A stretch of DNA of 64,000 bases from Cenococcum geophilum (taxonomy: Eukaryota): positions 20,150,001-20,214,000 of the forward strand of contig CP158635.1 in NCBI GenBank assembly GCA_050273025.1, read 5' to 3'. The notes beneath the pieces were generated by a model that saw only the letters and a list, made by a program, of their open reading frames with translations, ran no database searches and was not told where the DNA came from. Positions 56,498 to 64,000 of this stretch are shown piece after piece. Position 1 is the stretch's first letter. Every line of letters starts with the position of its first letter. The translations under genes were made by a program, and so were the position numbers.

Positions 56498-56859
56498 TGC
56501 CGGTCTACGTGGTCGCGCATCGCAAGAGCCCAGTGTCGATCTAACACTCTTATTGTGGTTTGCAACTGTCGTTTTCAAAATATCGGTAAAAATCGCTAAG
56601 CCGCACGACCTGTATTACCCCAATCAAAAGAATCCTTGGCATGCGGATTTCCAAATTTTGCACCCAAACTCACGTGTAAAACCGTAAGACAACTAACCCA
56701 TTTCCATGTTAAACGCGCCTTATTATCGATATAACGTCCCTATTATTAGTTAGTAAGTTAAAGCTAACATTATTCTACTATTTATTCTATTTTAATGTGT
56801 TTTCTAATATTATAGTATCTTATACTAGGAGGAAATCCAATCTACCACCTCGCTACGCG

Positions 56860-56920
56860 AGGTGGCGTCTCGCTGTCTCGACTCAGGTGGCCTTTCGCTG
56901 TTTTAACTTAGGTGGCCTTT
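56860..56920 (+). repeat. 25-bp tandem repeat (~2.4 units), overlapping a 21-bp hairpin at 56845-56865
   Basis: AGGTGGC starts at 56860, 56885 and 56910; hairpin CCACCTCGC-TAC-GCGAGGTGG. Confidence 0.7.
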
Positions 56921-56921
56921 A

Positions 56922-57406
56922 CAGTGATGTGCACGACCAGCTTCCCCTTTAGCGAGTTGCAGATTCGGTACGCGCATCCAATTTCGCCTGGTTGCCACCA
57001 GCTGTACATCGTAATTGTAGCGAGCGGCTGTGGCTGCACGCAAGGACCTTTTTGGTTGCCCTGGAGAATCGCCTTGGTTGGCCAGGAGAACCAAATCGAA
57101 GACGACGCTTCCTTTTCTCCCCCTTAACTATGCCTCCATTATGCCCGCAAAAACGCGAATACAACGCTGTCTCTGCAGAGAGGTTGACGAAATTTGGCAA
57201 TATCGTACGGGTGGAAGCCTCACGATATTTGACAAAGATCACGACACTGCGGAGGAAGGCCGCCAGAAGTAACGTTCTTGTAGCCAAGCATACGGCTTCG
57301 CTACAATTACTATGTACAGCTGGTGGCAACCAGGCGAAATTGGATGCGCGTACCGAATCTGCAACTCGCTAAAGGGGGGGGTGAAGCTGGTCGTGCACAT
57401 CAATAG
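56922..57406 (-). mobile_element. 485-bp Tc1/mariner-type MITE, un-RIPed
   Basis: ~100-bp TIRs (56925-57023 vs 57298-57402), TA at 56920-21 and 57407-08, CAGTG terminus; 57199-57406 is homologous to the start of the Tc1-like element at 63127-63358. Confidence 0.8.
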
Positions 57407-57407
57407 T

Positions 57408-60263
57408 ATGTCCACGGTTCGATTTGTATGGCTGAATCAGCCGCTGAGTCACGATTTGGCAGGCAGGAGGCCCGTGCGCTCAGTGGCATGTGGATGTTAC
57501 CCCATGTCCACGGTCGATCTTCGATCGCCAGCAACGCCGCAGCAACGTCGCGCTCTTAATACCCGTCAAGCGCTATGCGTAGAGCTGTCTAAGGGCTCTC
57601 TGCTCGCACTAGGATAGTAAGAATTGGCCATAGGTTAATAGAGATATTTACGTTTTAAATTAGGCGCCGCTATTATATAAGTACCCTACTAAACTTATAC
57701 CACACTAAAATAAGCCCCTAAGGGGCTATAGATAAAGGCTTTAAGAGAACTCCTTAGAAGTTAGATATATATACTATTTTAAAGCTTTTCTACCCGCTTA
57801 AAGCCGTTTATAAAGCTAATCTAGCAAGCACTATATCTACTCCTACTGTTAATTAATCTGCTATATAGCCGCTTTCTTACTAATCCTCTAGGCCTACGCG
57901 ACCCGCTTAATCTCCTTAATAACCTTAAGCCGTAGGGAGTACTATTAGAGCTTATTTTGCCAGCTAGCCCGCTATCTACTACCTTATTTAGAATTTAGCG
58001 CTACTATAGAAGGATTACCTCTAAGCCCTTTAGTCTATTTACGCTAAAGGGCCTATACGGACTTTACTGTACGGCATATACAATATACAGGCGGCTACTT
58101 AGGCGGCTGCTTAGGCTTAGGCCCTTACTGCGGCTATAGCTATAGCTATAGCTACAGCAGCGCTAGCGAAGGGGAAGCTATAGCGCTTATCTGGGCCGAT
58201 ATATTCTAGCTTAATTCCGCGATAGATAGAGGCGCTAATAGACGTGCCGTTAGTAGATATGCTATTAGTAGGTATACCGTTAAACGCGAATATATAGATG
58301 CCGAAGGGACCTTAAGCTAAAAGATAAGGCTACTAAATGTAAGCAATTAAAGCTATAAAGACTGCGCCTACTAGGACTCGGCTATACGGTTAAATAACGC
58401 CTATAGCTTACGTGCTTAGGCGTCTATAGTCTTTAGGCGGTCTGTAATAGCTAGTACGGCCTAGTAGAGTATTAATAGCTAGCTAGGGCCTTCTTCCTCC
58501 TACTATAGGTAGGCTTTAACCTTCCGCGCGAAGGGTAGATAGGCCTTATACTAAAAGACTAAGTAGTTCTATATAGGGCTACTTAGGAATATCTTACGGA
58601 GGACTACTAAGTTCTATAGGATAACCTCCTAGAGATAAAATAGGAGGTTTATAGCGCCTATAGCCGCAAGGTTGTTAATCTAGCCGACCTAAGGGCTAAA
58701 CTAACCCTTTTAGACGTCTAGCTCTAGCTAGATTATTAATAGTAGTATATTAGGGGGGGCGACGCTTGCCCTATAAATCTTAAAGCAGCCTATCTACGGC
58801 GAATGGCCGGCTATTATCCGTATAAACTCCCGCGGCAGCGAGTTTAAGTAATAGCCGACTATCTACTTCTAGTTCTACCTACTAGCGCGTTTAATCTAGT
58901 CCTTACTAACCCCTTTTAGCTCCGCTATCTTAGCGCTAGCGCTTTACTTAATATAGGTCTTCTTCTATAAGAAGACGCCGATAGCCTAAAATGCCTTAGT
59001 AACCTACTCCCGCTGCGAGTTATATAAGAAGGCCGTTTTATAGTTTCTAGCGCTGCTCTTAATTAGGCGGATATTATACTACACTAACCGCTTACTAAAG
59101 TCTAGGAATAGCTCGTTGCTAAGGTCCTAGCGGTATAGGAGGTAAAAAGCTAGCCTACTAAGTATATAAATGAGTGGCTTCTTATTACGTAGAGCTCTAA
59201 TAGTCTTAAGGCGGCTATACTAGTTCTACTTACCGGCGCGTGTAGTAAATATTAGGGGTATATAGCGCGTAGGACCTTTTCCCTTAAACTTAAAGGTAAA
59301 TAAGTCTAAGATCTTAGCGGAGCGCCTATTGCCGCCGTAGGTAAGTATATAGTGGCCTAGTAGGATATCTATAAGCGTGTAAAGGTAGTATTCTAGTAAG
59401 GAGTTTCTGCGGGCCTATAGCTCGCGGCAAACGCTTTTAAACTTATCCTCTATATATCCGTTAAGCAGTATATTTCTACCCTTATCTACAAACTACTCCT
59501 TTTTCTACTACGCGTCCCTCTATTATAGAATCTTTAGGTAATCCCTAATATTATCCTCCCGCGGGGACTAGTGGCTATTTATCCCTATACCCTTCTACGT
59601 CTAGTAAAGGTCTATTAGGGTAGTAATATAGCTATAAACTAAGCGTTAGGAGAGCCGCGTCTCGTCCTAAGGTATATTATCGCTAGCCTTACGGCTTTTT
59701 CCTTTTAGTAGCTAGCCTGTAACCTCCTTAATAAGGAAAAAAAGTAGCTTCTCTTCCGTAATAGTATCGCCGTTATAATACTGCTTTTGCTTATAAAAGG
59801 CCTAGAAAGACACGCGTTAGTTATAAGTATACTACTCTGTAAAGCACCTACCTACTTACCTTAAACTTTTTCTACTTTAGCTTATAATTTAGAGACGTGT
59901 TTTTAGGTTTCTTGGAATATATAAGGGTAAGAATACTCTACGCGTTAGCGCGTAGTTTGGTATTATTTATAACGTTAATCTTTACGCAACTAATTAACGG
60001 CATTTTTAAGATATATAGGACGCTACTAGAGAAGCTACGCTATAAGGGGGGGTTCCTATTTTCCTATATACGCAGATATAGACTAGGGAGAAGAGGTAGA
60101 GAAAGCATACCTACCGGATAAGTAATCTTACCGTATAGGGTAAATAAACGGGCGTATGGCTAGGCTAATAGGCTAATAGTACACGCGTATTAGCGACTCG
60201 ATTAGTAGGGGTAAAGACATTTAAAGATGTCTACGGCTTGGCTGTAGGCTCGGCCGTAAACAT
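57408..60263 (-). mobile_element. Crypton (tyrosine-recombinase DNA transposon), left copy, RIPed
   Basis: Mirror image of 60270-63125. Confidence 0.88.
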
Positions 60264-60269
60264 CCGTAA

Positions 60270-63125
60270 ATGTCCACGGCCGAGCCTGCAGCCAAGCTGT
60301 GGACATCTTTAAATGTCTTTACCCCTACTAATTGAGTCGCTGATGCGCGCGTACTATTAGCCTATTGGCCCAGCCATATACCCATTTATTTACCCTATAT
60401 AGTAAGGTCACTTATCTAGTAGGTATACTTTCTCTACCTTTCCTCCTTAGTTTATATCTGCGTATATAGGAAAATAGGAACCCCCCCTTATAGCGCAGCT
60501 TCTCTAGCAGCGTCCTATATATCTTAAAAATACCATTAATTAGTTACGTAAAGATTAATATTATAAATAATACTAAACTACGCGCTAACGCGTAAAGTAT
60601 TCTTACCTTTATATGTTTTAAGAGACCTAAAAATACGTCTTTAAATTATAAGCTAAAGTAGAAAGAGTTTAAGGTAAGTAGGTAGGTGCTTTACGGAGTA
60701 GTATACTTATAACTAACGCGCGTTTTTCTAAGCCTTTTATAAGTAGAAGTAGTACTATAACAGCGATACCGTTATAGAAGAGAAGCTACTTCTTTTTCTT
60801 ATTAAGGAGGTTATAGGCCGGCTATTAAAAGGAAAAAGCCGTAAGGCTAGTAATAATGTGCCCTAAGATAAGACGCGGCTCTCCTAGCGCTTAGTTCGCG
60901 GCTATATTACTACCTTAATAGACCTTTACTAGACGTAGAAGGGTATAGGGATAAACAGCCACTAGTCCCCGCGGGAGGATAATATTAGGGATTATTTAAA
61001 GGTTCTATAACGGAGGGACGCGTAGTAGGAAAAGGAGTAATTTATAAATAAAGGTAGAAATACGCTACTTAACGGATATATAGAGGACGAGTTTAAGAGC
61101 GTCTACCGCGAGCTATAGGCCCATAGAGACTTCTTACTAGAATACTACCTCCGTACGCTTATAGATATCCTATTAGGCTACTATATACTTACCTATAGCG
61201 GCAATAGGCACTCTACCGAGATCTTAAACCTATTTACCTTTAAGTTTAAGGGGGAAGGTCCTACGCGCTATATACCCCTAATATTTACTATACGCGCTAG
61301 TAAGCAGAACTAGTATAGCCGCCTTAAGACTATTAGAGCTCTACGTAATAAGAAGCCACTCGTTTATATACTTAGCGGGCTAGCTTTCTACCTTTTATAC
61401 CGCTAGGACCTTAGCAACAAGCCGTTTCTAGACTTTAGTAAGCGGTTAGTGTAGTATAATATCCGCCTAATTAAGAGCAGCGCTAGGGACCGTAAGATGG
61501 CCTTCTTATATAACTTGCAGCGGAAGTAGGTTACTAAGGTATTCTAGGCCGTCGGCGTCTTCTTATAGAAGAAAACCTATATTAGGCAAAGCGCTAGCGC
61601 TAAGATAGCGGAGCTAAAAGGGGTTAGTAAGGACTAGATTAAACGCGCTAGCAGGTAGAACTAGGAGTAAATAGTTAGCTACTATTTAAACTCGTTGCCA
61701 TAGGAGTTTATGCGGATAATAGCCGGCTATTTGCCGTAGATAGGCTGCTTTAAGATTTATAGGGTAAGCGTTGCCCCCCCTAATATACTACTGTTAACGA
61801 TCTAGCTAGAGCTGGACGTCTAAAAGGGTTAGTTTAGCTTTTAGGTCGGTTAGGTTAATAACCTTACGGCTATAGGCGCTATAAACCTCCTGTTTTATCT
61901 CTAGGAGATTATCCTATAGGACTTAGTAGTCCTCCGCGAGATATTTCTAAGCAGCCCTATATAGAACCACCTGGTCTTCTAGTATAAGGCCTATCTACCC
62001 TTTATATAGAAGGTTAAAGCCTACCTATAGTAGGAGGAAGAAGGCCCTAGCTAGCTATTAATACTCTACTAGGCCGTGCCGGCTATCGCGGACCGCCTAA
62101 AGACTATAGACGCCTAAGCACGCGAGCTATAGGCGTCGTTTAACCGTATAGCCGAGTCCTAGTAGGCGCAGTCTTCGTAGCTTTAATTGCTTACATCTAG
62201 CAGCCTTACCTTTCGGCTTAAGGTCCCTTTGGCATCTATATATTCGCGTCTAACGGCATACCTACTAATAGTACGTCTACCGACGGTATATCTACTAGTG
62301 CCTCTATCTATTACGGAATTAAATTAGAATATATCGGCCTAGGTAAGCGCTATAGCTTCCCCTTCGCTAGCGCCGCCGCAGCTATAGCTATAGCTATAGC
62401 CGTAGTAAGGGCCTAAGCCTAAGTAGCCGCCTAAGTAGCCGCCTGTATATTATATATGCTATATAATAAAGTCCGTATAGGCCCTTTGGCGCGAGTAGAC
62501 TAAAGGGCTTAAAGGTAATCCTTTTATAGTAGCGCTAGATTCTAAATAGGGTAGTAGATAGCGGGCTAGCCGGCAGAACAAGCTCTAATAGTACTCCCTA
62601 CAGCTTAAGGTTATTAAGGAGATTAGGTAGGTTGCGTAGGCCTAAAGGGTTAGCGAGAAAGCGGCTATATAGTAGGTTAATTAACAGCAGAAGTAGATAT
62701 AGTGCTCGCTAGATTAGCTTTATAAACGGCTTTAAGCGGGTAAAAAAGCTTTAAAATAGTATATATATCTAACTTCTAAAGAGTCCTCTTAAAGCCTTTA
62801 TCTATAGCCCCTTAGGGGCTTATTTTAGTGCGGTATAAGTTTAGTAGGGTACTTATATAATAGCGGCGCCTAATCTAAAATATAAATATCTCTATTAACC
62901 TATAGCCAATTCTTACTATCCTAGTGCGAGTAGAGAGCCCTCGGATAGCTCTACGTATAGCGCTTAACAGGTATTAAGAGCGCGATGTTGCTACGGCGTT
63001 ACTAGCAATTAAAGATCGACCGTGGATATAGGGTAATATCTATATACTACTGAGCGCACGGGCCTCCTGCCTGCCAAATTATGACTTAGCGGCTGATTTA
63101 GCCATATAAATCGAACCGTAGATAT
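60270..63125 (+). mobile_element. Crypton (CryptonF-like; Ndc10-type YR domain + Gcr1_C), right copy, RIPed; coding region ~60490-62800
   Basis: Degenerate GNRHSTEILNL (~61200), SKQN*YSR (~61300), KKTYIRQS for the HxxR motif (~61570), ASR*N...YY (~61647-61685); Gcr1_C-like ALWRE*TKGL...*GSR*R (~62480-62565); GTAAGT intron at ~60674. Confidence 0.88.
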
Positions 63126-63126
63126 A

Positions 63127-64000
63127 CTATTAATGTTTACAACTAGCTTCTACCCCCCCCCCAGGCGAGCTTAGATTTTTTTTACGCCATTTAATTTCGC
63201 TTAATTACTACTAACTGTATATAGTAACCGTAGCGAAGCCGTATGCTTGGCTGTAAGAACCCCCTAATCCTGGCGAACTTAAAGCTATTCGCGATCGGCT
63301 TCCCTCCGCAGTATCGTAATCTTTATTAAATATCGTAAGGTTTCTACCCGTACTATATTCGTAATATAGCTCCGCAAATAGGCCTATATTAGCACGCCCT
63401 AATTAAGGATCTTCTTTAACTTAGAGTAACTTGAGCAGAGTGTGCCTTAGCTGCTAGTTATACACCCTAATTAATTACCGCGATTAAGAGGAACTTACGT
63501 ATATTTAGATCAACTTAGGCGCCTTTAAACAGTAAGGGGGGGCAGTTTTTACTAAGCAATCGGATACTCGTGGTAATATTAATGCGGCTAGATAAGAAGC
63601 CAACTCTCTTTAGCAATAAGATATAGTGGTTAATCTACAACACGTTTAATCTCGTAGTTAGCCGCTATATAATATTTTAAAAGCTCTACTTAGCTGGCTA
63701 AACAAGAAAGCGGGTAAGCCAATTAGATCCTCTATAGATAGAGCTTAAAGAGTAGCTTATATAAAGAAGTGTTTCTAGGTAGCCCTCAAACAAAGCGCTT
63801 ACAATCGCGATATATATTTCGCCATTATATTATAGTATACCGCCAATTAGCTTATATTTATAGATAAGTTAAGTATAAATTCAAAGACAGGTGTATAGAA
63901 GACTAGTTAGGCTCCCTCTAGTATTGCACCAATCCTATATACATTATACAATCGGGCTAAGAGGAGGCTTAATATATTACCTACGTATACAATTAACGGC
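63127..64000 (+). mobile_element. Tc1/IS630-type DDE transposon, 5' part, RIPed; runs off the window
   Basis: Begins after TA with a TIR homologous to the MITE; frame AN*LIFIDKLS...KTS*APSSIAP...RLNILPTYTING (63842-64000) fits QLVFVDES...GWAP...ILPAYT. Confidence 0.75.

Follow-up and report, generated by a model that had tools for sequence, protein, structure and literature searches.

Two Crypton copies, head to head, joined at the same base to the inverted-repeat tips of different Tc1/mariner-family elements

To our knowledge, few eukaryotic transposons are understood as poorly as Cryptons; it is difficult to delimit their ends, and we know of their recombination sites only as 4-6-nt repeats. 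In tyrosine recombinase systems of the lambda Int type, a site formed from the joined ends of the element, with inverted half-sites, recombines with a look-alike of it in the chromosome, attB, and arrays form when further copies land in the hybrid sites of one already resident. Here we analyze a stretch of 64,000 nt from Cenococcum geophilum (GenBank assembly GCA_050273025.1, contig CP158635.1, positions 20,150,001 to 20,214,000, forward strand; 'the window' hereafter). In the window, two copies of a Crypton lie head to head, and the outer end of each is joined to the inverted repeat of a Tc1/mariner-family transposon.

The closest described elements are the CryptonF transposons of fungi and oomycetes (Kojima and Jurka 2011, PMC3212892). 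In the passages of that paper drawn on here, these are elements of ~3 kb with one frame, in which a tyrosine-recombinase-type domain is combined with a C-terminal GCR1_C domain; they have no reverse transcriptase, and a short sequence is common to the element end and its target. The window family shares these features. The same passages report terminal repeats of 4-8 nt and a fusion termed MarCry; the CryptonF repeats TAACTA, TACCTA and TACTTA resemble the window core TACTAT. The window family differs from CryptonF as described there in four respects: a joint that can be delimited to 27 nt, with inverted half-sites of 10 nt; long arrays, in which copies follow one another head to tail and the joint does not vary; a preference for a transposon tip as target; and a second, internal site with inverted motifs. 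MarCry-1_FO of Fusarium oxysporum also ties a CryptonF recombinase to a mariner-type transposon, with both genes inside one pair of 16-bp inverted repeats flanked by TA duplications and 15 copies moved by the DDE transposase (PMC3212892, same passages). In the window, by contrast, the Crypton splits the repeat 5 nt from its tip, and there is no sign of joint movement. For the active CryptonF-1_cRei of Chlamydomonas reinhardtii, the cited parts of Lopez-Cortegano et al. (2023, PMC9977147) describe an element end, CACCG, that matches the target CAYCG, as well as copies and target sites at inversion and translocation breakpoints, which the authors credit to the recombinase. The end-target match and the link between rearrangements and Crypton copies are points of likeness to our case, whereas the target there, rather than the tip of a transposon, is a motif of 5 nt close to genes, and the cited parts contain no head-to-head joint at an internal site. 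No paper describing Cryptons in inverted-repeat tips, tandem arrays of Cryptons or Crypton pairs set head to head came up in a literature search, which left most subscription journals outside its reach.

For comparison, metagenome contigs were scanned with a 32-nt pattern made from the Crypton 3' end, tolerant of repeat-induced point mutation (RIP) and leaving the flank unspecified. The scan yielded 65 loci (labelled L001 etc.) with 73 distinct 3' junctions, and 29 full-length Crypton units formed the basis of the unit alignment. In four public runs, contigs of the family number in the thousands, and their differences from the window are almost solely transitions.

The two Crypton copies make up most of a large inverted repeat (57199-63359, by self-BLAST of the window). 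Between 57401-60269 and 60264-63132 the mirror is gapless, with 2568 matches, 301 transitions and no transversion. Genes run outward from the centre in both arms; thus the copies stand head to head, with their 3' ends outermost. The inner element is of CryptonF type. With stops read as X, the left arm (57408-60266, minus strand) matches Pfam NDC10_II (1.3e-43) and then GCR1_C (2.4e-07) in one frame, and a less mutated relative, L014, gives 6.2e-75 and 2.1e-18, again with GCR1_C downstream in the same frame. NDC10_II is the recombinase-derived fold of Ndc10/Cbf2 (PMC3212892, as excerpted). A six-frame Pfam scan of the arm found only these two families and no reverse transcriptase. There are no long terminal repeats, and the sole terminal symmetry is a 10-nt motif. 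As to the catalytic residues R-H-R-Y, a comparison by eye rather than by a computed alignment shows L014 to have THIGxSAG...GRW...GCYL, similar to the THAGRVSG...GRW...GCYL of the excerpt in Additional file 4 of PMC3212892; in the window copy, the His of this motif has become Tyr, with stops in between. A phmmer search of PDB with the L014 frame gave no match.

The elements joined to the two outer ends are related but distinct. On the left is a miniature inverted-repeat transposable element (MITE) of 485 bp, with inverted repeats of ~100 nt (56922-57023 and 57298-57402). On the right is a longer element with a 22-nt segment (63274-95) that is missing from the MITE. Where the arms of the palindrome show 301 transitions only, these Tc1-family ends (63131-63359 versus 57402-57199) differ by 13 transversions and three indels (1, 2 and 22 nt), and the transversion closest to the joint (63137/57396) is 10 nt outside it. 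If the 16 non-transition events were placed at random over the 3098 aligned bases, the probability of all falling within these 229 bases would be ~8e-19. The MITE family occurs elsewhere, 93.7% identical in L001 and also in L007, L036, L015 and L030. Over 874 nt, the long element has 80% and 78% identity to relatives in L053 and L015, respectively, both of which carry DDE_3 (9.8e-15 and 3.4e-10), and its 36-37 transversions from them mark a different subfamily. The MITE end is nearer to the L015, L030 and L053 ends than to the right-hand end. Judged by their sequences, then, the window flanks are two different family members.

These results bear on an earlier, sequence-only reading of this DNA, in which both Crypton outer ends were joined to the same end of two different Tc1-family elements, whose ends, unlike the Crypton arms, differ by indels and transversions. 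Both claims hold. The junction is also identical on the two sides, as had been stated: 57398-57417 reads ...CATCAATAGTATGTCCACGG, and its mirror image at 63116-63135 is CCGTAGATATACTATTAATG. The abutment itself is seen on both sides, but the limits proposed for the Tc1 elements (57406 and 63127) need correction, since homology to the inverted repeat stops at 57402 on the left and starts at 63131 on the right. It follows that the Crypton-side repeats lack their last three bases (CAG/CTG), and ATAGTA, including its 'TA', belongs to the Crypton end core and not to the inverted repeat. The right flank had been called a transposase-bearing relative. The ~80% identical relatives with DDE_3 support this, but a Pfam match inside the window does not, as six frames of 63127-64000, where only 874 nt of the long element fall within the window, matched no family. 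The motif ATGTGCACGA of the inverted repeat, found on the reverse strand at 57391-57400 and in RIP form at 63133-63142, does match the Crypton motif ATGTCCACGG at 8 of 10 positions. Overall, the repeat motif occurs in the window at 56925, 57383 and 63131 only.

Junctions of the same kind recur among the relatives. Eleven of the 73 3' junctions, on nine contigs, lie on the Tc1-family inverted repeat, and all read ...GTCGTGCACAT|CAATAGTA, broken at the same base as the two in the window. They span several repeat subfamilies set apart by indels, as well as both Crypton subfamilies, and the orientation of the BLAST matches shows either end of one MITE family to be occupied. The varied subfamilies and the use of either MITE end indicate separate landings, not copies of one composite. 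Same-family MITEs with a Crypton 3' end at both inverted repeats are seen in L051 (3780-4360) and L060 (1800-2190).

The other side of the Crypton tells where the missing tip went. At 5' junctions outside arrays, TA-CAGTG|GTGTT is found in 8 of 14 cases, and the flank ends with TG or its RIP form, TA, in all 14. In L007, which holds a complete solo insertion, the flanks rejoined give an intact repeat tip plus TA. Free ends of the family read TA-CAGTGATG (TA-CAGTGATGTGCACGACC) or a RIP form thereof in all five cases in the loci, and at least one contig of run X1 has ...CATCA+CTG+TA. Free ends with CAG, Crypton-side repeats without it and a tip at the opposite Crypton end together place the Crypton between CAGTG and ATGTGCACGA of the inverted repeat, with the crossover in the TG common to ...CTATTG and CAGTG. 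When TACAGTG is aligned against TACTATTG at inverted-repeat targets, the exact common stretch is only 2 nt. We are highly confident that the Crypton targets the repeat tip site-specifically, which was the first of three possibilities raised in the sequence-only reading.

What the recombinase might recognize is suggested by the remaining 3' junctions. Irrespective of flank, 67 of the 73 3' ends have an 8-nt core, as CAATAGTA or in the RIP form TAATAGTA, ahead of TGTCCACGG. 'TA-CTATTG' is therefore the Crypton's own end core, and its candidacy as a target duplication was ruled out. Head-to-tail joints onto the same family account for 33 of the 73 junctions, with a period of 2957 or 2940. Their sequence is constant, CCGTGGACAT-ACTATTG-GTGTTCACGG, with two inverted 10-nt half-sites around 7 nt, and the natural unit starts with GTGTTCACGG. 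The joined ends of an excised circle, TACTATTG|GTGTTCACGG, would look like this joint. Another 27 junctions are on other flanks, and two (L003 and L061) are on a diverged Crypton-like 5' end. In the latter two loci (L003 7064-11729), the Crypton stands head to tail on an element ~73% identical over unit 346-1770, with a TA-CAGTG tip flanking the pair upstream. Landing sites seem to be common to different Crypton lineages.

Of these last 29 junctions, 23 had usable flanks and were scored. They share nTGTT after the core (T2 in 17, G3 in 15, T4 in 18 and T5 in 15). A RIP-aware match of these flanks to the Crypton 5' end averaged 6.0/10, versus 4.16 for controls, and none of 100000 resamples reached 6.0. 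On the same measure the inverted repeat scores 9/10, a level reached by 0.05% of control 10-mers. The Tc1 tip is thus the best natural copy of the joint's right half in these data, and this accounts for the high frequency of landings there. The Crypton may also target the tips of other Tc1-like families. In L011 and L013, the 5' flank is TA-CAGTG and the 3' flank lies outside the Tc1/MITE repeat family (L011: GGGTGTCCGGTTCG...).

The second possibility raised was the reverse, that the Tc1 family targets Crypton ends. Family elements would then have inserted twice into TA at the Crypton outer ends, by a DDE transposase preferring Crypton termini. TA, the target of Tc1/mariner elements, is indeed present at both joints, and family members tend to land beside each other's ends. 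But an inserting element would bring its complete CAGTG tip, and we reject this explanation because both Crypton-side repeats lack the CAG present at 5/5 free ends. In addition, TA is part of the core at 67 of the 73 Crypton ends, beside unrelated flanks too, and it is the opposite Crypton end that has the displaced TA-CAGTG (8/14; L007). We give this order of events next to no credence.

The use of either MITE end in different loci, which fits landing and not co-transposition, also bears on the third possibility, a composite carrying both DDE and tyrosine recombinase genes. Here the unit from the MITE left tip to a far repeat beyond 64000 would move as a whole by a Tc1-type transposase, in the manner of MarCry. 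Its outermost tips point outward, with CAGTG at 56922 and, presumably, a full tip at the far end, and MarCry-1_FO shows that such hybrids exist (PMC3212892, as excerpted). The head-to-head layout, however, is repeated in none of the 65 related loci, which leaves the composite unsupported, and its far end, with the closing repeat and TA duplication, falls outside the window. We consider it very unlikely.

There is strong support, instead, for a model in which the Crypton's own tyrosine recombinase integrates it through the joined-ends joint CCGTGGACAT-ACTATTG-GTGTTCACGG at look-alikes of the joint's right half, (T/G)TG followed by nTGTT. The preferred target would be TA-CAGTG-ATGTGCACGA, the Tc1/mariner tip, with insertion between CAGTG and ATGTG. 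Such a landing leaves the inner repeat beside the Crypton 3' end, and the Crypton 5' end is left with the TA and the tip of 5 nt. The window holds two landings of this kind, one in the 485-bp MITE and one in the long, transposase-type relative.

How the two copies came to face each other is suggested by the centre of the palindrome. Natural units have, at positions 63-87, a second pair of inverted motifs around 6 nt, CGTCGACAT-TCGCGG-ATGTCCACGG, which we term site II and which is present in 46 of 47 5' regions. Both window arms begin at the ATGTCCACGG of this site, unit position 78, and the spacer between them (60264-69) reads CCGTAA, which is TCGCGG with two RIP changes, read on the strand of the left copy. 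Both copies lack unit bases 1-71 as well as displaced repeat tips; by BLAST, the right copy covers unit 62-2957. The joint, to within 5 nt, thus lies at the border of a recombinase-type site.

Most likely, two Tc1-family elements already stood tip to tip, as in L051 and L015, and each received a Crypton, to give an intermediate of the form MITE - Crypton - CACTG-TA-CAGTG - Crypton - long element. The DNA from one site II to the other, namely 2 x 71 nt of Crypton heads, two displaced tips and a TA, would then have been lost. This loss could have occurred by a recombinase exchange in the wrong orientation, the central CGCG of the spacer being symmetric, or by slippage between GACAT repeats across the central hairpin. 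In a variant, two distant copies would exchange at site II, inverting the DNA between them. RIP, as C-to-T mutation, came last and killed both copies independently. Abutting tips are found among the relatives: in L051, a TA shared by both is all that separates the displaced tip from that of another family member, and run X1 has at least two joints with Tc1-family ends tip to tip. A pattern search for abutting tips matched mostly AT-rich RIP sequence, and only the match at L051 7247 is real. L015 (1-4160) has, in order, a MITE end, a Crypton of subfamily A, CACTG-TA, 6 nt, and the TA-CAGTG of a long element bearing DDE_3. This layout is one landing short of the proposed intermediate, at a different locus (36 transversions in the long element).

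The palindrome could also have arisen by fold-back or template-switch inverted duplication at site II, with one flank later changed by gene conversion or a second switch. The centre has the form expected from fold-back priming, with arms that abut a 6-nt loop, and conversion donors exist in this high-copy repeat family. Yet a switch would need to fall in the first 10 nt of the repeat, before the first transversion at 63137, and the left element is a complete member of the MITE family, not a decayed mirror of the long element. Nor do the arms have an excess of common RIP history. Their differences are of C-to-T type, with mutated shares of 62% for CpA, 36% for CpG, 11% for CpT and 10% for CpC, and RIP-type mutation has killed both copies independently. 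The arms share RIP sites at a ratio of 2.41, as compared to 2.11-2.59 for unrelated copies (45 pairs); hence the pair is not the product of late copying from a unit that was dead by then. With independent landings at the same base so common, the extra steps are unneeded. The sequence-only reading had associated a single insertion followed by inverted duplication with unrelated flanks at other copies and Tc1 ends that are mutual closest relatives. Unrelated flanks are found at many other copies, but the two Tc1 ends are not closest to one another, so this scenario is not implied. We regard inverted duplication as improbable.

Palindromes are also prone to mis-assembly, and the head-to-head joint might be an artefact of that kind. 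Against this, the arms differ at 301 positions, as two real, separately mutated copies with different flanks, and the joint falls exactly at the natural 26-nt site, with no long shared stretch to mislead an assembler. The chance of an artefact thus seems very slight indeed. Joints listed as 'opposite strands' for the public runs were discarded as cross-mapping between the two arms.

Several observations weigh against the account that we favour. Textbook tyrosine recombinases exchange strands 6-8 nt apart, the overlap of the classical model, and heterology within the overlap gives rise to both segregants. Here the crossover maps to a 2-nt window (TG). The target's A is kept in 13/13 repeat junctions and the Crypton's G in all 14 non-array 5' junctions, including the eight at repeat tips; no heteroduplex segregants were seen among these 13 and 14 junctions. 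The family therefore resembles the lambda Int type in its inverted half-sites, look-alike target and arrays but differs in being a eukaryotic transposon with a 2-nt crossover window, whose core is always kept at the 3' junction. As to the centre, the 65 loci contain no second head-to-head joint at site II and no facing 5' ends, and hence the proposed intermediate is not seen. The reciprocal product of an inversion (unit bases 1-70, transitions ignored) was not found in the window; a match to unit 1-70 at 63854, with 77% identity, was judged to be at chance level, its continuation not matching. With a spacer (TCGCGG) of only partial symmetry, site II would be inefficient in wrong-orientation exchange. 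Finally, the metagenome loci come from few samples, and several contigs may belong to one organism; 'independent' thus means independent by sequence differences, not by separate genomes. Taking these points together, we consider the whole account, comprising targeting, head-to-head origin and RIP, to be probable, with less assurance than we attach to targeting itself. Table 1 lists the features of the locus.

Table 1. Features of the Crypton pair and its flanks, in window coordinates
Feature	Position	Strand	Basis or remark
TA at the intact left MITE tip, MITE target duplication	56920..56921	.	Sequence; TA precedes 5/5 free family ends
Non-autonomous Tc1/mariner-family MITE	56922..57402	.	Left tip CAGTG intact; right repeat lacks last 3 nt
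Crypton 3' end core CAATAGT (ACTATTG in gene sense)	57401..57407	-	CA at 57401-02 common to inverted repeat, marking the crossover point
Left Crypton copy, subfamily B, unit 78 to end, dead by RIP	57403..60263	-	0 transversions versus L001 and versus right arm
Left-copy GCR1_C	~57855-58079	-	Pfam GCR1_C
Left-copy NDC10_II-type recombinase region	~58539-59588	-	Pfam NDC10_II
Head-to-head joint at internal site II	60254..60279	.	Half-site CCGTAAACAT 60254-63, spacer 60264-69, half-site ATGTCCACGG 60270-79
Right Crypton copy, subfamily B, unit 78 to end, dead by RIP	60270..63130	+	Gapless mirror of left arm
Right-copy recombinase region	~60945-61994	+	Mirror of left copy
Right-copy GCR1_C	~62454-62678	+	Mirror of left copy
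Crypton 3' end core ACTATTA (RIP form of ACTATTG)	63126..63132	+	63131-32 common to inverted repeat
Long Tc1/mariner-family element, 5' part, cut by window end	63131..64000	+	Repeat lacks CAG tip

The window as a whole has the composition of AT-rich fungal repeat DNA, and RIP is uneven along the locus. The MITE (GC content 0.53) shows little RIP, and the outer 200 nt of the left arm (57403-57602; GC 0.57) are likewise nearly unmutated. The mirror stretch at 62931-63130 is mutated (GC 0.45), and the adjoining long element more so (GC 0.38). To the left of the MITE, a 25-nt unit is present in two tandem copies (56860-56909), and the flank further left (56630-56830) is itself a repeat, with ~80% matches in L025 and L041.

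Other arrangements of the Crypton were seen among the relatives. In L027 (6379-9507), two 3' ends stand tail to tail with 155 nt of heavily mutated DNA between them. In L044 (1172-10110), an insert of ~5.9 kb splits a unit. The unit that follows in the array breaks off near position 69, just short of site II, where unrelated DNA begins; the break is not at the spacer border, and we attach no meaning to it. Unit 9-42 (e.g. in the junction regions of L030) forms a hairpin with 14-nt arms, GGCTCGGCTGAGCG..CGCTTAGCCGCTGAGCC, within the 5' segment that the window copies have lost.

A bolder version holds that tip landing is an evolved habit, the joined-ends site copying the resident Tc1/mariner tip, and that site II is a working second recombination site. 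The new outer end after landing, CAGTG + GTGTTCACGG, is like the old tip at 12/15 positions. We hold this version to be unlikely. If it were true, every MITE end would be a safe harbour whose new outer end may still be cut by a DDE transposase, which would provide a birth route for hybrid transposons of the MarCry type. A working site II would make this a two-site tyrosine-recombinase transposon, able to invert, fuse or resolve its own copies.

Short of that, landing in tips could be how MarCry-like hybrids of DDE and tyrosine recombinase elements begin. That the head-to-head joint falls on an internal site may be a sign of Crypton recombinases rearranging copies of their own element, which would agree with the inversions linked to Cryptons in Chlamydomonas (PMC9977147, parts cited above). 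This locus and its 73 related junctions give a base-level picture of the joint, with two inverted 10-nt half-sites around ACTATTG, and of the target rule, TG followed by nTGTT, with the Tc1/mariner inverted-repeat tip as the preferred natural target. In this picture, one transposon family uses another as a landing pad and thereby shapes repeat-rich, RIP-mutated regions of a fungal genome.

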